A DNA stretch of 20,946 bases from an uncultured bacterium (GTDB lineage: Bacteria; Lernaellota; Lernaellaia; Lernaellales; Lernaellaceae). The notes under the pieces were generated by a model that worked only from the letters and a program-made list of their open reading frames with translations, made no database searches and was not told the origin of the DNA. The stretch lies in assembly GCA_964534375.1 (NCBI GenBank), contig CAZHPN010000098.1, positions 1 through 20,946 on the forward strand, in the 5' to 3' direction. Below, piece after piece: positions 3,443-20,946 of the stretch (within the stretch, counting starts at the first letter, position 1; every line of letters begins with the position of its first letter). The translations under genes were made by a program, and so were the position numbers.

Positions 3443-4192
3443 ATGCGCATTGTTGCAACCCTCCCCACTTTCAATGAAGCCGAAAACATCGAGCCGCTGA
3501 CGCGCGAAATACGGGCGCTGGGCCTCGAAGTGCTGGTTGCCGACGACAACAGCCCCGACGGCACTTGGAAGCTCGTCGAAAAAATGGCGGCGGACGATCC
3601 GGGCGTGCACCTGCTGCTGCGCCGCGAGAAAAAGGGGCGCGGCTACGCCGGCGCCGAGGCGTTCGTCAAAGCGCTCGAACTGGGCGCCGCGCGCATTGTC
3701 GAGATGGACGCCGACTTCTCGCATCAGCCACGTTTTGTTCCCGATCTCTTGCGCGCGCTCGACGCCGGCGCCGACGTGGCCGTCGGCAGCCGCTTTGCGC
3801 CGGGCGGCAAGGACGTCGATCGCCCGTGGCATCGCCAGTGGTTGACGCGCTTCTCGGCGTGGTACGCGCGGCGCGTGCTCGGCTTGACGATTCGCGACGC
3901 CAACAGCGGGTTCCGCGCCTTCACGCGCGAGGCGATGACGCGGATCGATCCGGCCACGCTGATCTCCGCCGGCCCGAGCATCGTCCACGAGGTTTTCGCG
4001 CGCGCCACGGCCCGCGGCTTGCGCATCGCCGAATGCCCGATCGAGTTCGTCGAACGCCAGCGCGGCACGAGCGAACTGACCGTCGGGCGGCTGCTCGACG
4101 GCTTCCTCAAAGTCTGGCGCGTCAGAAAGAGGGAAAAAGGAAAAAGGAAAAAGGAAAAAGTCGAACTGCGAGACGCGCCCCCGACAGATTGA
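3443..4192 (+). CDS. GT2 polyprenol-monophosphomannose synthase-like glycosyltransferase
   Basis: PTFNEAENI, DDNSPDGT, MDADFSHQP, GSRF, SGFRA and PIEFVERQRGTS motifs; abuts the GT9 stop. Confidence 0.9.
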   Translation: MRIVATLPTFNEAENIEPLTREIRALGLEVLVADDNSPDGTWKLVEKMAADDPGVHLLLRREKKGRGYAGAEAFVKALELGAARIVEMDADFSHQPRFVPDLLRALDAGADVAVGSRFAPGGKDVDRPWHRQWLTRFSAWYARRVLGLTIRDANSGFRAFTREAMTRIDPATLISAGPSIVHEVFARATARGLRIAECPIEFVERQRGTSELTVGRLLDGFLKVWRVRKREKGKRKKEKVELRDAPPTD

Positions 4193-4280
4193 TCCATTTC
4201 GGCAAAAGTTGGCGGATTGCGTGCGGCGCAACGGTGTCCGGCCGGGCTGAATTTTTTCCTTTTTCCTTTTTCCTTTTTCC
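4132..4280. repeat. Inverted pair of heptamer arrays (GGAAAAA)4 ... (TTTTTCC)4 with 93-nt spacer
   Basis: Arms read directly at 4132-4159 and 4253-4280. Confidence 0.9.
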
Positions 4281-4327
4281 TTCCCTTGCCTTACAATGCG
4301 CTTCCGTTTAACGGTTGGAGGCAACGC

Positions 4328-5423: not shown

Positions 5424-6626
5424 ATGGCCCCGAAGATCAAAGCGACCAGCAAAGTCAAAGAGATGATGACGATCTACTACCTGACCGCGAAAAACGCGGC
5501 GTTCAACAACCGGCAGATCGGTTGGATCACGTCGGGCGGCCCGGTGGAACTGCTGCAGGCGTTCGACGTCATCCCGATTTATCCGGAGAACCACGCGGCG
5601 ATGGTCGGCGCGGTGAAGATGGGCGGCCAGCTGGCGGCGGTCGCCGAGGGCATGGGCTACAGCCCGGACTTGTGTTCGTATTTCCGCATCGACGTCGGCG
5701 CGGCGGAGACCAACGGCGGCCCGATCGCCGGCCTGCCGAAGCCGAATTTTTTCGTGTGTGCAAGCAACATCTGCAAGACGGTGGTCAAGTGGTACGAGGT
5801 CCAGGCCGCCAAATTCGACGTGCCGCTGCTGATGATCGACATTCCTTTTGTGGAAGGCGCGATCACCGGCTCGGAAGTGGCGTACGTGGCGCAGCAGTTG
5901 CGCGAGATGGTTCCGGCGCTGGAAAAAATCACGGGCAAGAAGTACGACGAAGCGAAGTTCATGGGCATTCTCGAAAAATCGCGCGACGCGGTGAATCTCT
6001 GGTCGCAGTGCCTCGAGACCTGCCGCCAGTCGCCGGCCCCGATGAGCAGCTTCGACTCGTTCTTCCACATGGCGCCGATCGTCACGTTGCGCGGCGAGCA
6101 GCAGACGCTCGATTATTACCAGGCGCTGCTCGCGGAACTGACCGAACGCGCGGCGCAGAACATCGCCGCCGTCGAGAACGAACGCCACCGCTTGCTGTTC
6201 GACAACATTCCCATGTGGTACGCCGTGCGGCACATGTTCGAGCTGCTCGCGGCGCGCGGCACGGCCGTCGTCACCGCGACGTACACCGCAAGCTGGAGCC
6301 TGGAACGCGACATGACGCAAGGCGATCCGTTCGAAGCGATGGCCTACAACTACCTCGCGCCGTACATCAATCGCGGCTTCGAAACGCGCCTCGAGATCCT
6401 CGAAGGTTTGCTGAAGAAGTACAACTGCGACGGTTTCCTGATGCACTCCGCGCGTTCGTGCAAAGCCTACAGCCTCGGCCAATACGACCTGCGCGACGCC
6501 TTGACCGCGCGCACCGGCAAACCGGGCGTGGTCATCGAAGGCGACATCGCCGACGAACGCATCTGGTCCGAGGGGCAGGTCGACACGCGCCTGGAAGCGT
6601 ACCTCGAAGGGCTCGACCGCGCCTAA
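5424..6626 (+). CDS. 2-hydroxyacyl-CoA dehydratase / benzoyl-CoA reductase subunit B-like (HGD-D family)
   Basis: YPENH, DLCSY, NICKTVVKW and RSCK motifs; C-terminal TRLEAYLE; GGAGG RBS. Confidence 0.88.
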   Translation: MAPKIKATSKVKEMMTIYYLTAKNAAFNNRQIGWITSGGPVELLQAFDVIPIYPENHAAMVGAVKMGGQLAAVAEGMGYSPDLCSYFRIDVGAAETNGGPIAGLPKPNFFVCASNICKTVVKWYEVQAAKFDVPLLMIDIPFVEGAITGSEVAYVAQQLREMVPALEKITGKKYDEAKFMGILEKSRDAVNLWSQCLETCRQSPAPMSSFDSFFHMAPIVTLRGEQQTLDYYQALLAELTERAAQNIAAVENERHRLLFDNIPMWYAVRHMFELLAARGTAVVTATYTASWSLERDMTQGDPFEAMAYNYLAPYINRGFETRLEILEGLLKKYNCDGFLMHSARSCKAYSLGQYDLRDALTARTGKPGVVIEGDIADERIWSEGQVDTRLEAYLEGLDRA

Positions 6627-6712
6627 GCCGGGGAAGAGACCGCGGGCATAGCCGCCGAAATAAGACCGCCCAGACCGCGAAAACGGCCGAATTGAACTCG
6701 TTTTTGGCCGCG

Positions 6713-6968
6713 CAGACCTCTCCCCGGAAATTTTGGCTCCCGCCGAAATTTCCTGCCCCTCCCCGACGCAGGGAGGGGCGCACGGGGCCGCATTGGCAGG
6801 CGGATAGGAAGCAAAGAAAAAAGCCTCGTTTGTTGTTTCACCAAGGCGAAGGCGAACTCGCGGGCGGCGTAGCGCCTCTTCGCACCCCGGGTCCACAAAC
6901 TCGTCCGCTCGCCCCTCCCTGTGCCGGGGAGGGGCGCGGCCACGCCGAGCGTGGCCGGGGGAGAGGTC
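6713..6968. repeat. Palindromic REP/MITE-like element, copy A
   Basis: Terminal IR GACCTCTCCCC/GGGGAGAGGTC, internal hairpins such as GCCCCTCCC..GGGAGGGGC, 130-nt core at 6781-6910; homologous to 8336-8594. Confidence 0.85.
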
Positions 6969-7039
6969 GGCGTGGCAAAGGCAGGGCGGCGAAGCGACCA
7001 GCGCTTATCCGAGCGCCAAGGAAGACCGCCGCCGGCCCG

Positions 7040-7369
7040 CTAGTCGCCGGCGGTGCAGTTGTCGATGCAGTTGGCGAACGCCGCGCAATCGCCGTTTTCC
7101 TTCGCGCCGGTATTGCACGTCGCGACGCAGGCGCTCAATCCGCTGCTGTTGCAACTGCTCGTGCACTGGCTCTGCGTCAACGCGTTGCCGTTGGCGTCGT
7201 TGATCGACAAGCTGCAGCCCTGGTAAAGAATGTCGCAGGCGTCGGAGCAGTTGCTGTTGCCGCCGCCCGAGCTGCTGCTGTGGCTGCTTGAGGCGCAACC
7301 CGCGACGACCAGCCCGGCCGCCGCCGCAAAACAAAGAGACAGAATCGTCAGACCATAGAGTCCGCGCAT
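7040..7369 (-). CDS. Small Cys-rich lipoprotein, paralog 1
   Basis: GGAGG RBS, signal peptide with lipobox VAGC, Ser/Gly linker, 10-Cys domain shared with three neighbours. Confidence 0.85.
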   Translation of the reverse strand: MRGLYGLTILSLCFAAAAGLVVAGCASSSHSSSSGGGNSNCSDACDILYQGCSLSINDANGNALTQSQCTSSCNSSGLSACVATCNTGAKENGDCAAFANCIDNCTAGD

Positions 7370-7448
7370 CGAATACCTCCCATAGTTGTCCGAGCGGCCC
7401 CCAACCCGAACAAAGTTTTCAATGGTTCCCACGTAATTGTAAGAAAGA

Positions 7449-7458
7449 TAATGACGGA
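7449..7458 (-). promoter_or_regulatory. Conserved motif TCCGTCATTA upstream of lipoprotein paralog 1
   Basis: Identical 10-mer about 80 nt upstream of three paralog starts. Confidence 0.6.
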
Positions 7459-7555
7459 AACGGCAAAGAAAACCGTCCGGCCGCGAAAGCAGCGATTAAA
7501 TCCAACATTGACATCCGCCGCCCCAGGCGTTGCGCGCCGGGGGGCGCCCGGCGAT

Positions 7556-7912
7556 TCACAAGCCGCCCGTCAGGCATCCTTCGATGCACGTGGCGAACGC
7601 CGAGCAATTGACATCGGCCTCGAGGCCGGCGCTGCATTGGCCCGCGCAGAAGCTCAAATGGCCGGTGTCGCACCCGCTCGCGCAGTCGTTTTGGGACATC
7701 GGATTGCCGTTTGCGTCCGCGATCGTCAGATTGCAGCCCTCGTACAGGTTCTTGCAGGCGATAGTGCAAAAGCTGGAGGCGCCGCTGGTGTCGGCGCCGG
7801 CGCTCATGTTGTCGCTGCCGCTGTCGTCGCCGGAACCGCAACCCACGGCCAGCGCAATCGCCGCCGCGGCAAAACCCAGCGACAGAATCGCCCATCCGGT
7901 ACGTGTCAGCAT
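7556..7912 (-). CDS. Small Cys-rich lipoprotein, paralog 2
   Basis: AGGAGG RBS, lipobox AVGC, same 10-Cys spacing, DANGN motif. Confidence 0.85.
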   Translation of the reverse strand: MLTRTGWAILSLGFAAAAIALAVGCGSGDDSGSDNMSAGADTSGASSFCTIACKNLYEGCNLTIADANGNPMSQNDCASGCDTGHLSFCAGQCSAGLEADVNCSAFATCIEGCLTGGL

Positions 7913-7993
7913 GGGGTCCCTCCTGGTTTTGTGATCTCCAAAAGGCCAAGCCGAACGCGAGGTCCGGCGACTCTCCCTGAATCGCCGGAATTG

Positions 7994-8003
7994 TAATGAC
8001 GGA
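7994..8003 (-). promoter_or_regulatory. Conserved motif TCCGTCATTA upstream of paralog 2
   Basis: Identical 10-mer; runs into the -10-like hexamer TACAAT on the minus strand. Confidence 0.6.
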
Positions 8004-8188
8004 TAGCGGAAACGCCAGATCAAGTAGTCCGTTGCCCGAACACCCGTTCAATGCGCGACTCGTCGCGCCGACCCCTTCCCGACGCGACACGGCATCAGCT
8101 CTAGAACGAAGAGCTGCGATACTTCAAATGGCGCGCAACTGCGCTCGTTTTTGCTCGCTCAGACCTCTCCCCGCGCCCGTCGCTGCGA

Positions 8189-8293
8189 ACTGTCCACTGT
8201 CCGCTGTTCGCTGCCCACTGCCCACTGTTCGCTGTTCGCTGTTCGCTGCCCACTGTTCACTGTTCGCTGTTCGCTGTTCGCTGTTCGCTGCCC
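8189..8293. repeat. Heptamer tandem array (RCTGYYC)x15
   Basis: 15 contiguous units such as ACTGTCC, GCTGTTC, GCTGCCC and ACTGTTC. Confidence 0.95.
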
Positions 8294-8335
8294 GAGCCTC
8301 TTGCAAAATTGCAGTTCGATAATCGGCGCTCCGAG

Positions 8336-8594
8336 CAGACCTCTCCCCGGACGATCACGCCGCAGGCGTGATCGTCCTGCCCCTCCCCGACGCAGGGAGG
8401 GGCGAGAAGACACCGTGGCGGACCCGCGTTGCGGAGAGATCCTGCACGGCCCGCGAGATCGCCTTCGCCGTGGTGAAACAACACCGGATGCCTTTTCTTC
8501 AACGCCTGTCCGCCTGCCAATGCGGCGCCTGCCTGCCCCTCCCTGTGCCGGGGAGGGGCGCGGCCACGCCGGGCGTGGCCGGGGGAGAGGTCTG
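8336..8594. repeat. Palindromic REP/MITE-like element, copy B (core inverted relative to copy A)
   Basis: Same left and right arms as copy A; core 8405-8534 matches the reverse complement of 6781-6910. Confidence 0.85.
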
Positions 8595-8663
8595 CGCCCG
8601 CCGAGAAAGGATTAGGCAAATACGCTTTTCCGAGCGTCGCCGCTCTTTATCCTAAAGCCTATG

Positions 8664-8713
8664 CTGTGTCGGGGAGGGGCGCGGCCACGCGGGGCGTGGC
8701 CGGGGGAGATGTC
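8664..8713. repeat. Third (solo) right arm of the palindromic element
   Basis: CTGTGTCGGGGAGGGGCGCGGCCACGCGGGGCGTGGCCGGGGGAGATGTC is nearly identical to the right arms of A and B. Confidence 0.85.
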
Positions 8714-8904
8714 GACGCGAGGCGCCGGCTATTGATCTGCCATTCCTGCAAGAGGCTCGAGAGACATTGAGAATCGACAGGGCTGCATCGGGCAATAGTC
8801 CCGCGGCGGCGCCGCCCTGGCGGGGGTCGCTGAAACCGCGGTGGCGGCGCCGCAAATCGGCGCTCCGCGTCCGCGTTTTGCCTGAGCGCCGTTCGCGCCG
8901 CGTT

Positions 8905-9243
8905 TCATAAGTTCCCGCTGAGGCAGCCCTCGACGCAATCGGCGAGCGCGGTGCAGTCGCCGTTGGCCTCCGTGCCGGCGCTGCACTGCACGACGCAGGA
9001 CTCCAAGGCGCTGGATTCGCAACTGCTCGTGCAGTCGTCCTTGGACATCGGATTGCCGTTCGCATCGCCCAGCGTCAGGTCGCAGCCATCGTAGACCGTT
9101 CGGCACGCGTCGGGGCAAACGTTGCCGCCGTTCGGGCCGTTATATCCGGGGCCCGCGCCGTAGTCGCCGCAACCGACGGCGATCAGCGCTGTTGCCGCCG
9201 CGAGGCAGCATGCCAGCATCGCCAGCCAAAGTTCTCTGCGCAT
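8905..9243 (-). CDS. Small Cys-rich lipoprotein, paralog 3
   Basis: AGGAGG RBS before ATG 9243 (MRRELW...), lipobox AVGC, same 10-Cys spacing. Confidence 0.85.
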   Translation of the reverse strand: MRRELWLAMLACCLAAATALIAVGCGDYGAGPGYNGPNGGNVCPDACRTVYDGCDLTLGDANGNPMSKDDCTSSCESSALESCVVQCSAGTEANGDCTALADCVEGCLSGNL

Positions 9244-9287
9244 CGGACACCTCCTGTTTTTCTCCGAGACGCCGAACCGCACACGGT

Positions 9288-9707
9288 TCACAAACCGCCG
9301 GTGACGCACTCGTCGACGCAGTACGCGACATCTGCGCAGGCGCCGTTGGCCGGCGTGCCGACGCCGCACTGCTGCACGCAGTAAGCCAAATCCTGGGCGT
9401 CGCAAATGTCCGTGCAGTCGCTCTGTGACAGCAGGTCGCCGTCCAGATCCCAAAGCGGCTGGTTGCAGACTTCGGCGACGTCCCGGCAGGCGCTGGCGCA
9501 TTCGCCGCCGCCGCCGCTGCTGTTGATGCCGATCACGGCGCCGTTGTTGCCGCCGCCGGCGGCCGGATGCTCCGTCACGCCGATCCGATTGCTGCCGGCG
9601 GGCTCGTTGCTGCTGGTCCCGTCGCCGGCCTCGCAGCCCATGGCGATCACACCCGCCGCCGCGGCCAAACAGGCCGCCACGATCGCCAACCCGTAAAGCG
9701 CACGCAT
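9288..9707 (-). CDS. Small Cys-rich lipoprotein, paralog 4
   Basis: AGGAGG RBS, lipobox AMGC, longer Gly-rich linker, same 10-Cys spacing. Confidence 0.85.
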   Translation of the reverse strand: MRALYGLAIVAACLAAAAGVIAMGCEAGDGTSSNEPAGSNRIGVTEHPAAGGGNNGAVIGINSSGGGGECASACRDVAEVCNQPLWDLDGDLLSQSDCTDICDAQDLAYCVQQCGVGTPANGACADVAYCVDECVTGGL

Positions 9708-9783
9708 GGGAATCCTCCTGTCTTTTCTCCGAAAGGCCGACTGAAACCGGTCTTCCAGGATTCGTCCTGAACCGACCGAATCG

Positions 9784-9793
9784 TAATGACGGA
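9784..9793 (-). promoter_or_regulatory. Conserved motif TCCGTCATTA upstream of paralog 4
   Basis: Identical 10-mer; runs into the -10-like hexamer TACGAT on the minus strand. Confidence 0.6.
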
Positions 9794-9958
9794 ATGTGCA
9801 AAAGATAGTGGGGCGATACGGGCGTTGCACACGCTCGCACGTACCGCATTTCAGTGCGGTACGGCCGCCTTCTGATTTCTATCTTCTGACTTCTCGCAGC
9901 TTGACAACCCGCCGATTCTTCTCTCAGATGACGACCCACTACGTGTTAGGTTAATCAA

Positions 9959-10768: not shown

Positions 10769-10832
10769 CCCGGACCTCACACGAAGCATCTCGGTCCCGG
10801 ACCTCACACGAAGCATGTCGGCCCCGGACCTC
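10769..10832. repeat. 27-bp tandem direct repeat, about 2.4 copies
   Basis: CCCGGACCTCACACGAAGCATSTCGGY at 10769 and 10796; partial copy at 10823. Confidence 0.85.
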
Positions 10833-18386: not shown

Positions 18387-20507
18387 CTATTGCACGCAAC
18401 GCACGGCGTACGCGCTGTAGCCGCCGGCGATCGTGTCGTCGATCGCGCCGGTCGTGAAACTGACGGTCCATGCGTCGCCGCCGTCGTCCGGAACGGCCGT
18501 GGCCGACCAGTACAGCGAGGGAAGGCCCGAGATCTCGACGGGCCAGTAGGCCCCGCCCTTTCCGGGGCCGCCGGAGACCGTGCAACCGTCGCAGACGTCG
18601 CTCGAACACGTCGTATCCGGACAAGCGTCCGTGACGCCGCAGGAGCCGCCGGTATCGGTGGCCGAGCAACCCCGGAGCAAGCTGCGCAGTTGGTCGATAT
18701 CCGGCAATTGCCAGCCGGTCTGGCCGCCCCACGTCAGACTCGCGCAGTAACTCTGGGCGTCGGACCAACCCACTACGCTGGCGCCCACCGTTTCGCCGTT
18801 CTGCCACGTCAATGTGCTTGCCGGATCGGTCCATACCGTTTCGGCGTCGTCCGCCGCGCACGCTTGCTGCGAACTGCAATAACCGACGTTTGTGCAGTCG
18901 GCGCACGAGGCTCCGGCCGTGCCGCACACGGTGTTGGCGTCGCCGGGCTGGCAGATTCCGCTCGCGTCGCAGCAGCCCGTCGGGCAACTAGTCGCGTCGC
19001 ACTGGCACGCGCCGCCGCCCGCGGCGCTCACGCATTCTTGTCCGGTCGGGCATTCGATGCACGCCGCGCCGTTGGCGCCGCACGCGTCGGTCGCCGTTCC
19101 GGCCATGCAGGACGACCCGTCGCAGCAGCCGGTCGTGCAGGCGCCGCAGGTTGCCGTGCAAACCCCGGCGGTGCAACTATCGCCGGCGCTGCATTCGACG
19201 CAGGCCGCGCCGCCCACGCCGCAGGTCGCGTCGCTGGCGGTCTGGCAGACGCCGTTGGCGTCGCAGCAGCCGCTCGCGCAACTCGCCGCATTGCAGACGC
19301 ACGCGCCGCCGCCGGCGACGCTGACGCACTCTTGCCCTCCGGCGCACGCGACGCACGCCGCGCCGTCCACGCCGCACGCGGCGTTCGCCGTGCCGGCCGC
19401 GCAGGAGGTTCCATCGCAACAGCCGGTTTGGCAAGTCGTCGCATCGCAACCCGCGGTGCATGTTCCGGCCGTGCAGACGTCGGCGCCGCCGCAGGCGACG
19501 CAGGTCGCGCCGTTCGTGCCGCAGGTGGCGTCGCTGCTGGCCCAACAGACGCCGCTCCCGTCGCAGCAGCCGTTCGGGCAACTGGTTGCGTTGCAGGCGC
19601 CCGCCGGGTGCACGCAACGCACGCTGTTGAGGTTGCTGACGCCGTTGTAGCTGCTGAGGTGGGCGGTATTGAATTCGATCAGCCACTGGTCGCCGGCGTT
19701 CGGAACCGAAGCCGACCAATACCAATTGCCGTCGGCGCCGGTGACCGCTGGCGGCCAGTACGCGCCGCCCGGTCCGGGTCCGGCCAAACTGCCGCAGCCG
19801 TAGCAGCTTCCGTTCCAGCAATCATAACCCAGGCAAGCGTCGGTCACACCGCAGGACCCGCCCGGCGCCGTGGCCGCGCAGCCCTGAATCAGGCTGCGAA
19901 GCTGGTCGATGTCGGGCAACTGCCAGCCGGCGTAGCCGTCCCACGTCAGGTTCGCGCAGTAACTCGCGGCGTCGGCCGGGCCAACCACATTGGTCCCGAC
20001 TGTATTGCCGTTTTGCCACAGGTTGCCGGTGTTCGGATCGGTCCAAACGGTCTGGGCGGTGTCGTTGTCGTCATCGTCGTCCGGCGCGGTGTCGTCGTCG
20101 ATCGGCGACGAGTCGTCATCGTCGTCGGGCGCGGTGTCGTCGTCGTTGTCGTCGTCATTGTCGTTGTCGTCATCGTCGTCGTTGTCGTCATCGTCGTCGT
20201 TGTCGTCATCGTCGTCGGGCGCGGTGTCGTCGTCGATCGGCGACGAGTCGTCATCGTCGTCGTCGTCGTCGGGCGCGGTGTCGTCGTCGTTGTCATCGTC
20301 GCCCGGCGACGCGTCATCGTCGTCGTCGCTCGGCGACTGGTCATCGTCGTCGTCGCTCGGCGAACTGTCGTCGTCGCTCGGCGACGCATCGTCGTCGATG
20401 GCGGGGTGACCGCTGCTGCTGGTGGAACTGCTGCACGACGCCGCTGCGCAGACCGCGAGGCCAAGCAGGAGCATCAGAGCCAAACGCCAACTGGATCTGG
20501 ACTTCAT
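18387..20507 (-). CDS. Large lipoprotein: Asp-rich linker, two DUF1566 (Lcl C-terminal, CLec) domains and five Cys-rich repeats
   Basis: GAGGAGG RBS, signal peptide with AASC lipobox, poly-Asp tract, two copies of WTDP.T...WQ...A.SYC..L.W.G..GWQLPDIDQLRSL...YWS...VRCV. Confidence 0.88.
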   Translation of the reverse strand: MKSRSSWRLALMLLLGLAVCAAASCSSSTSSSGHPAIDDDASPSDDDSSPSDDDDDQSPSDDDDDASPGDDDNDDDTAPDDDDDDDDSSPIDDDTAPDDDDDNDDDDDNDDDDDNDNDDDNDDDTAPDDDDDSSPIDDDTAPDDDDDNDTAQTVWTDPNTGNLWQNGNTVGTNVVGPADAASYCANLTWDGYAGWQLPDIDQLRSLIQGCAATAPGGSCGVTDACLGYDCWNGSCYGCGSLAGPGPGGAYWPPAVTGADGNWYWSASVPNAGDQWLIEFNTAHLSSYNGVSNLNSVRCVHPAGACNATSCPNGCCDGSGVCWASSDATCGTNGATCVACGGADVCTAGTCTAGCDATTCQTGCCDGTSCAAGTANAACGVDGAACVACAGGQECVSVAGGGACVCNAASCASGCCDANGVCQTASDATCGVGGAACVECSAGDSCTAGVCTATCGACTTGCCDGSSCMAGTATDACGANGAACIECPTGQECVSAAGGGACQCDATSCPTGCCDASGICQPGDANTVCGTAGASCADCTNVGYCSSQQACAADDAETVWTDPASTLTWQNGETVGASVVGWSDAQSYCASLTWGGQTGWQLPDIDQLRSLLRGCSATDTGGSCGVTDACPDTTCSSDVCDGCTVSGGPGKGGAYWPVEISGLPSLYWSATAVPDDGGDAWTVSFTTGAIDDTIAGGYSAYAVRCVQ

Positions 20508-20738: not shown

Positions 20739-20893
20739 GGGAAGGAAAAAGGAAAAAGGAAAAAGGAAAAACTCCGACCGCGGGCTGCAGACCGGGGCAA
20801 AGGGCGGCGCACCTATTGACGCCGCACGAGACGGGCGCGGGCAACCAACAGCGGCTGCTCTCGGCCATTTTTCCTTTTTCCTTTTTCCTTCCC
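20739..20893. repeat. Inverted pair of heptamer arrays GGGAA(GGAAAAA)4 ... (TTTTTCC)3TTCCC with 96-nt spacer
   Basis: Arms at 20739-20771 and 20868-20893; same architecture as 4132-4280. Confidence 0.9.
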
Positions 20894-20946
20894 TTATACC
20901 ACCACCGATTTGAACACAGGACGGGCGAAGAGCTCCTTAAGGGAGC

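Follow-up and report, generated by a model that had tools for sequence, protein, structure and literature searches.

The 20,946-nt contig CAZHPN010000098.1 from an uncultured bacterium of the Lernaellaceae (GenBank assembly GCA_964534375.1), analysed over its full length and referred to here as the window, contains two copies of a palindromic repeat element, A (6713-6968) and B (8336-8594), each 256-259 nt long. Their central part, the core, runs in opposite directions, and the question is whether a core has flipped between arms that stayed in place or whether the two elements lie in opposite orientations. A preliminary description of this stretch, based on the DNA letters, favoured arms in the same orientation around an inverted core, and proposed an invertible switch or a REPIN-like element whose core flips during mobilisation. 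The analysis reported here points, with a probability of roughly 0.6, to oppositely oriented copies of a modular fold-back repeat, in which B is a chimera produced by an exchange of ends. The family to which A and B belong is best read as multi-copy and non-coding, similar to MITEs (miniature inverted-repeat transposable elements) or BIMEs (bacterial interspersed mosaic elements).

Architecture and similarity of the two copies

A and B have a common plan, consisting of a 13-nt terminal box, an outer hairpin (hp1), an inner hairpin (hp2) and a 129-nt core, followed by the mirror image of hp2, hp1 and terminal box. The inner hairpin hp2 is a G+C palindrome with stems of 9-10 bp and a 5-nt loop. 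The terminal boxes (13-16 nt, 100% complementary) constitute terminal inverted repeats, and in the predicted fold the arms pair end to end. The outer hairpin is hp1A in the left arm of A, hp1B in the left arm of B, and hp1R in the right arm of both copies.

6713-6968, minus strand: copy A, canonical, with the minus-strand order terminus, hp1R, hp2, core, hp2, hp1A, terminus, which is the order of seven metagenome elements
6726-6753: hp1A, the AT-rich outer hairpin of the left arm of A and the asymmetric marker of the family
6754-6780: hp2 of A beside hp1A, with a 5-nt loop, 27/27 identical to 8378-8404
6781-6909: core of A, 129 nt
6910-6968: hp2, hp1R and terminus of A, an upstream-type arm, 92% identical to 8664-8714
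8336-8594, plus strand: copy B, chimeric, with the order terminus, hp1B, hp2, core, hp2, hp1R, terminus
8349-8377: hp1B, the outer hairpin of the left arm of B
8405-8533: core of B, 129 nt

The similarities between the copies noted in the preliminary description are all present. In direct comparison, 6751-6780 matches 8375-8404 at 30/30 positions, the right arms match at 57/58 (6911-6968 and 8535-8592) and the left 13-nt termini at 13/13. In inverted comparison, 6831-6865 matches 8483-8449 at 33/35 positions, and 6755-6808 matches 8559-8505 with 87.5% identity over 56. The cores are indeed antiparallel: aligned as reverse complements they share 96 identities in 131 columns (27% diverged), whereas direct alignment gives 70 identities in 141 columns, which is the chance level (300 shuffled cores have a mean of 70.2, a standard deviation of 3.9 and a maximum of 84 identities). 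The inverted repeat said to bound the core is also there, and is perfect over 12 bp in A and 11 bp in B.

The directly shared left arm stands for its termini and hp2, which match, but not for its outer hairpin, since hp1A (6726-6753) and hp1B (8349-8377) are equal at only 15 of 29 aligned positions. With hp1 and the core left out, A and B differ at 2 of 80 positions when compared directly and at 8 of 80 when one of them is inverted, and this gap consists of four loop positions and the junction bases. The hp1R hairpins of the two copies, compared directly, have 1 mismatch in 21. Being almost perfect inverted repeats, the terminal boxes and hp2 look alike in either orientation of the element and have almost no polarity; polarity within the arms is found only in hp1 and at two transition sites in each hp2 loop. 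The same-orientation appearance of the arms rests on the right-hand hp1R of both copies and on four transition sites. In global alignment A scores 176 against the reverse complement of B and 105 against B, and opposite orientation therefore explains more of the sequence.

Pieces of the element are also over-represented in the window. The terminal 11-mer occurs six times with at most one mismatch (0.38 expected; none of 100 shuffles reaches six), and a 10-mer of the hp2 stem occurs nine times (2.06 expected). A literature text search with the terminal 11-mer gave, among the matches listed, only papers that are unrelated judging by title, and a distant-mode search of a plasmid collection with copy A gave no match.

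The predicted fold of each copy is a single long hairpin from which the two hp1 branch off at the side. Against 100 mononucleotide shuffles these folds have z-scores of -7.4 to -10.0 for A and -8.8 to -11.8 for B, as DNA or RNA and on either strand. The stop-to-stop frames that cross A and B are low-complexity read-through; no conserved open reading frame (ORF) is seen in either copy, and the six-frame ORFs that were tested gave no Pfam match.

Further copies and the polarity of the core

Additional copies were sought in protein collections with translations of the non-genic frames that are open through the elements, because such frames are often called as genes in G+C-rich DNA. Three window frames and one profile yielded ten proteins, P0001-P0010; the third frame (copy A, plus strand) found only two proteins, both of which were already known from the other searches. 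The ten proteins come from metagenome contigs of 597 to 44,332 nt and contain 13 further cassettes as spurious ORFs, giving 15 cassettes with A and B. Modules were scored by a script that compared 9- or 12-residue windows of the six-frame translations of hp1A, hp1B, hp1R and the cores at a required identity of 75%, and its result agrees with direct reading of the sequences and with protein alignment. A tblastn search of the proteins against the window gave low-complexity noise and was used for long flank matches only.

For comparison, every cassette was turned so that its core reads as the plus strand of B. In this frame of reference hp1A lies downstream of the core in 11/11 elements that carry it and upstream in 0/11. 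The hp1B hairpin lies upstream in 3/3 elements, and hp1R lies upstream in nine and downstream in two (B and P0006). Both arms are seen in 11 elements, which have the following arrangements.

hp1R, core, hp1A (eight elements): A on its minus strand, the second elements of P0001, P0004 and P0009, and P0002, P0007, P0008 and P0010
hp1B, core, hp1A (one element): P0005
hp1B, core, hp1R (two elements): B and P0006

As judged from these translated copies, the family appears to have a fixed polarity, with an hp1R-type hairpin upstream of the core and hp1A downstream. The matches came through core and hp2 similarity whatever the hp1, and hp1A frames are free of stop codons, so no bias against a flipped form is seen. 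The earlier argument that the arms are distinguishable enough to exclude inversion of the whole element breaks down, as hp1R can occupy either end (nine against two) and the hp2 loops differ at two polymorphic transition sites.

Nor do the copies lend support to an invertible switch or to a core that flips on mobilisation. In addition to the constant side of hp1A, the core has the orientation of B in 2/2 proteins that share the left flank of B, a 7-mer array with 45 nt (P0004, 60% over 134 aa; P0008, 47% over 148 aa). The likeness to a REPIN-like, non-autonomous element fares better, in that the family is non-coding, strongly folded and multi-copy, with two full and two partial copies in the 21 kb of the window besides the 13 cassettes in the ten proteins.

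The recurrence of these arrangements also bears on the assembly. A repeat-induced misjoin could have reversed the middle of one copy, and the location of six of the ten related proteins on contigs of 597-2071 nt suggests that the repeats break assemblies. Cores that are 27% diverged are, however, not one sequence placed twice, and the arrangement of B recurs independently in P0006, as that of A does in seven other elements, so that an artefact is extremely improbable.

A nested insertion was considered and rejected for A and B. The core would be a separate element with its own 12-bp ends that entered the loop of a single central hp2 in either direction, but its polarity relative to hp1A is constant. 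Such an insertion is possible as a distant origin of the core, and a 101-nt element in another genome (locus L031, see below) has the minimal design of two arms with one hp2.

Reassortment of the arms and a proposed origin of copy B

The hp2-core-hp2 cassette is found with different arms. P0008, P0005 and P0006 have a near-identical translation of the cassette, and their arm pairs are hp1R/hp1A, hp1B/hp1A and hp1B/hp1R, respectively. B and the second element of P0004 have another version of the cassette in common, with the arm pairs hp1B/hp1R and hp1R/hp1A. The presence of the same cassettes with different arm pairs indicates that the arms reassort on a constant cassette. The series P0008, P0005, P0006 arrives at the arm pair of B by two arm replacements, and P0005 is the observed intermediate. 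Copy B has its counterparts in two places, P0006 with its arm pair and the second P0004 element with its cassette and other arms.

The hp1R hairpin, its terminus and a 66-nt module, M, travel as a block. This block adjoins the upstream end of the canonical element in P0002, but the downstream end of B and of P0006. In the middle, hp1B resembles hp1R with compensatory changes, and 16 of its 29 aligned positions match the reverse complement of hp1R (15/29 match hp1A).

On the reading favoured here, A would be a canonical copy on the minus strand, and both ends of B would be of the upstream type, the left one formed by hp1B and the right one by hp1R together with the flank M that usually accompanies it. 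It is these two upstream-type ends that would make the right arms of A and B match while the cores are antiparallel. The simplest origin of B would be an exchange between two copies at the conserved hp2 or at the G-boxes, with the P0005 step as the intermediate. Chimeras in general may form by recombination or template switching between copies at the hp2 palindrome and the G-boxes, and the family may spread as a non-autonomous element that is served in trans by a hairpin-recognising enzyme.

Other joins involve hp2 as well. At five sites, the half-arm C of the window (8664-8714) and P0001, P0002, P0003 and P0009, M directly adjoins half of an hp2 stem together with its loop, which makes hp2 a recurrent junction. 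Both loop classes occur at these hp2-M junctions. It is conceivable, though distinctly doubtful, that a hairpin-specific enzyme that cuts and joins DNA (for example a transposase of the HUH/Y1 type acting on single-stranded DNA) works at hp2 and reassorts arms, cassettes and flank modules either way, and that the arm of G-box, variable hairpin and G-box, with whalefall-1 (see below) as one branch, is the unit recognised in an undescribed but widespread superfamily of mobile modular repeats in several bacterial phyla.

The hp2 loops read G-R-C-R-C from the outer to the inner side, with three A/G combinations at the two R sites wherever the frame fixes the bases; the exceptions are a loop whose first R site is C and an aberrant loop in P0010. 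The left and right loops of A and B differ by two A/G transitions only. The loop pair of B is that of P0004, and the loop pair of A is one transition away from that of P0005, P0006, P0008 and P0009, whose downstream loop is partly determined.

Inversion of the core as an alternative

The core alone, or the whole hp2-core-hp2 cassette, could instead have undergone a true inversion by recombination or strand switching between the inverted hp2 stems while the outer arms stayed, with B or A descending from that event. The perfect inverted repeat around the core (12 bp in A, 11 bp in B) would provide the sites, and the direct match of the arms, including both hp2 loops and hp1R (2/80 mismatches, and 1/21 for hp1R), is what such an event would leave. 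The product that it predicts, hp1A upstream of the core, is found in none of the 11 elements with hp1A, and the P0008-P0005-P0006 series gives the arm pair of B by two arm swaps on an unchanged cassette. With cores that are 27% diverged, any such event would be old and would not amount to a working switch between A and B. Inversion at the hp2 stems in one lineage is considered unlikely.

Several observations weigh against opposite orientation with an exchange of ends. The loops of A and B match exactly in the direct reading, which is compatible with polymorphism as a moderate coincidence and is the best point for a real inversion. The hp1B hairpin has its basal stem and the junction base in common with hp1A; were it of the hp1A type, B and P0006 would be flipped counterparts of the canonical form. 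P0002 has the right arm and flank of B (86% over 43 aa, plus strand), but its core matches the minus strand of B, so that of the two proteins sharing this arm and flank, P0006 has the same core orientation and P0002 the opposite one. The flank itself is a repeated module, and a block that can sit on either side of the cassette seems the better account of P0002, which can also be read as an inversion. The sample is small, and several of the proteins may be one locus from different samples, in which case the 15 cassettes are not independent. The other copies are read as amino-acid translations, which leave some loop bases unfixed and miss copies that have no open frame. Mobility, finally, is deduced solely from copy number: no target-site duplication is seen, the repeat runs past the terminal boxes, and no transposase is known for it.

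Flanks and partial copies

Conserved sequence continues past the terminal boxes on both sides of the elements. These flanks, a lone terminus at 8144-8173 and a lone half-arm at 8664-8714 were missed in the preliminary description.

6697-6712: ext-b, a conserved extension outside the left terminus of A, always found with the terminus on the hp1A side
6969-7016: a possible degenerate module M to the right of A, weak, with a 13/14 match to M at a similar offset from the terminus (2/500 shuffles reach the score)
8144-8173, plus strand: a lone terminus with ext-b, without hairpins behind it
8180-8290: a tandem array of about 13 copies of a 7-mer (85% matches), with the lone terminus before it and a conserved 45-nt flank (8291-8335) after it that leads into B
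8598-8663: module M, 66 nt, between the right terminus of B and the lone half-arm
8664-8714, plus strand: lone half-arm C, consisting of hp2 loop and 3' half-stem, hp1R, and a terminus with one mismatch, with M in place of the 5' half of hp2

The left flank of A and the lone terminus are related, with 90% identity between 6697-6726 and 8144-8173 and a wider flank alignment (6640-6712 with 8085-8159) whose score is met by 1/500 shuffles. The ext-b extension is also translated in P0001, P0002 and P0005. The 7-mer array and the 45-nt flank are translated beside elements in P0004, P0008 and P0010, and this recurrence makes both of them part of the repeat mosaic. Module M is translated next to hp1R-side termini or half hp2 in P0001, P0002, P0003, P0006 and P0009. 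By reading, no direct repeat that could be a target-site duplication is found beside the terminal boxes, and the conserved sequence runs beyond them, so that the boxes do not fix the true ends.

Genomic surroundings

The window encodes a peptidase S51, a short-chain dehydrogenase, two glycosyltransferases, two HGD-D proteins and an inositol monophosphatase, as well as a Ser/Thr kinase, an FGE-sulfatase protein, a 5'-nucleotidase and an Lcl_C protein. The genes closest to the repeats are three paralogues with a cysteine-rich C-terminal domain (42% and 49% identity), for which there is no Pfam match.

7040-7369, minus strand: short cysteine-rich paralogue with a lipoprotein-like signal peptide
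7556-7912, minus strand: short cysteine-rich paralogue with a lipoprotein-like signal peptide
8905-9939, minus strand: third cysteine-rich paralogue

Copy A sits between the 3' ends of two convergent genes, and the cluster around B sits between two of the cysteine-rich paralogues. This location between paralogous genes for secreted proteins, together with the inverted repeats around the core, would suit a phase-variable inverton, in which a site-specific recombinase flips a promoter-bearing core and thereby controls the neighbouring genes for small secreted proteins. The rest of the evidence makes this highly improbable. As the preliminary description had said, no recombinase is encoded nearby: none of the 29 window ORFs has a Pfam match to a recombinase or transposase, including the RAYT type. 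A scan for the sigma-70 consensus found no promoter-like site in either core, the only one between 6500 and 9000 being at 7204-7231. In addition, A lies at the 3' ends of its two neighbouring genes, the family is multi-copy with many different flanks, and the two proteins with the left flank of B both keep its core orientation. A function as terminators was also rejected, as the three terminator-like sites in 6500-9000, with 2.6 expected, are no excess.

The window contains other repeats. A second, unrelated fold-back repeat is present at 4131-4292 and 20741-20897 in a window that is otherwise rich in G+C, and has four tandem A-rich heptamers, a G+C-rich spacer of about 90 nt, T-rich heptamers that complement the A-rich ones, and a short tail common to both copies; its copy at 4131-4292 spans the junction of the GT2 and HGD-D genes. 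The 713-aa ORF with the Lcl_C domain (minus strand) includes, at 18958-19604 and 20061-20397, a tandem repeat with a unit of 294 nt (2.2 copies, 75% matches) and an extended tract of GTC-rich triplet and 45-nt repeats. A 27-nt tandem repeat (10769-10832; 2.4 copies, 94% matches) lies just beyond the end of the inositol monophosphatase ORF.

Arm design in other lineages and likeness to whalefall-1

A scan of genome contigs with the arm pattern gave at least 79 loci, and none of those listed carries the core of A and B. Among the matches listed, the arm design (hp2, G-box, variable hairpin, terminal G-box) is present in 27 arms from 25 loci under a filter that requires the upstream hp2 half and a foldable hp1. 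These matches include several copies each in one Chloroflexi metagenome-assembled genome (MAG) and in one unclassified MAG, and single copies in Scytonema, an Anaerolineae MAG and others, so that several phyla are represented. The elements in these other genomes are short, with about 100-130 nt between mirror-image termini, and locus L031 has a minimal element of 101 nt with two arms around one central hp2.

An alignment of 19 chosen arms, four from the window and 15 from the loci, has compensatory changes at all seven outer stem pairs of hp1. The pairing figure, 90.5% of cells against 50.3% in shuffles and at most 50.9% with the partner slid, is somewhat inflated by the prior selection for foldability. 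The hp1 hairpin is conserved as structure and not as sequence.

Three groups of loci look different. In L028, L036, L042, L058 and L059 (Bacteroidales, Prevotella and others), two G-boxes stand back to back after an hp2-like hairpin, without hp1, and this pair recurs; the insertion of hp1 between two similar G-boxes may be optional. Twelve Streptomyces loci (L005, L008, L014, L032, L034, L044, L046, L061, L062, L070, L074 and L076) have the arm pattern with one fixed spacing and with both flanks conserved; they look like a single conserved locus that fits the pattern by coincidence, not like members of the repeat family. An Isosphaera MAG has a different multi-hairpin repeat of about 200 nt at four loci (L004, L011, L021 and L048), in which the terminal box motif is self-paired.

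The arms are also related in layout to the Rfam family whalefall-1 (RF01762). At a relaxed threshold, the left arms of A and B match on the minus strand, with scores of 30.2 and 27.7 bits (E = 2.4e-5 and 1.5e-4) that do not reach the gathering score, which is 37, and the right arms have no match at E up to 10. Positions 1-56 of the full model align to both left arms, with the two-hairpin layout and the conserved 3' tail. At the gathering threshold Rfam finds nothing in the window, and only a tRNA in 20 related loci. In Weinberg et al. 2010 (PMC2864571), whalefall-1 is rated as certainly RNA, not cis-regulatory but a free-standing non-coding RNA, and is known only from whale-fall metagenomes.

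On another account, the arms would encode small structured RNAs like whalefall-1, with the repeats as clusters of RNA genes instead of mobile DNA and the core as a spacer. The full-model matches of both left arms, the strong covariation of hp1 and the published rating of the motif all fit that account. The matches are, however, under the gathering cutoff and restricted to the left arms, and the motif occurs once per strand in every element, as would be expected if it formed the terminal inverted repeats of a DNA element. Hairpins that are read in single-stranded DNA should covary just as much, and promoter-like sites were not found in the sigma-70 scan. Clusters of RNA genes are thus quite improbable, and a fold-back DNA repeat is still preferred for A and B.

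Comparison with known systems

A and B are more likely to be an object of an ordinary kind, a non-autonomous mosaic repeat of an undescribed family, than a new DNA switch. BIMEs are mosaic elements in which a limited number of modules is combined and ordered in different ways, and the A/B mosaic likewise includes partial elements and the extra flank modules M, ext-b and the 7-mer array. The pneumococcal BOX elements (Croucher et al. 2011, PMC3049150) are also mosaics of a few modules in varied combinations and orders. Unlike those of BIME and BOX elements, the modules of A and B form a near-perfect fold-back with terminal boxes, and the likeness is one of plan, with no similarity in sequence expected.

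REPINs, pairs of REP hairpins that RAYT transposases mobilise (Bertels and Rainey 2011, PMC3116915; PMC3337134), resemble A and B in being non-coding, intergenic and multi-copy, with inverted hairpin arms around a spacer that form one long hairpin. A and B are much larger (about 256 nt, with a 129-nt core) and have two different hairpins per arm, which differ between the ends, and the window has no RAYT gene. The repetitive extragenic palindromic (REP) sequences have a GTAG or CGTC tag at one end of the palindrome, according to Di Nocera et al. 2013 (PMC3733652); the hairpins of A and B are flanked by G-boxes instead, and CGTC is present only inside one variant of the hp2 loop.

Bacterial MITEs (reviewed in PMC10969869) are small, non-coding, intergenic and multi-copy and have terminal inverted repeats. 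A and B are likewise small, non-coding and intergenic, with terminal inverted repeats, and are probably multi-copy in their genome as well. A Porphyromonas MITE with a minisatellite (PMC4596501) is associated with a tandem array, similar to the 7-mer array of the A/B family. A and B differ from MITEs in that they have no identified target-site duplication or known parent insertion sequence, and in that conservation extends past their terminal boxes. The occurrence of these repeats among tandem paralogues for small secreted cysteine-rich proteins, and their apparent tendency to break assemblies, matter for the annotation of such genomes.

Whalefall-1 (PMC2864571) resembles a single arm of A or B: a hairpin with one C/T-rich and one G/A-rich side is joined by a short linker to a second hairpin, which is variable, and a G-rich 3' tail that is conserved comes last. 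In A and B, unlike in whalefall-1, a larger DNA repeat carries this motif as its terminal inverted repeat. The design of G-boxes around a freely covarying hairpin recurs in lineages as distant as Chloroflexi, Anaerolineae and Scytonema, and whalefall-1, an orphan motif filed as RNA since 2010, might be worth re-examining as a possible terminus of mobile DNA.

In the flip-flop of imperfect palindromes, such as parvovirus terminal repeats and plastid inverted repeats, reversal of the whole unit shows only in its asymmetric middle. Unlike in these systems, A and B show no sign of hairpin-primed replication or of two isomers at one locus. The principle of appearance is the same, however: reversal of a near-perfect palindrome is visible only in the asymmetric middle, and this lies behind the earlier reading of a flipped core. 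Opposite insertion of fold-back repeats, combined with an exchange of end modules, mimics a flipped core, and scans for invertible DNA should control for it.

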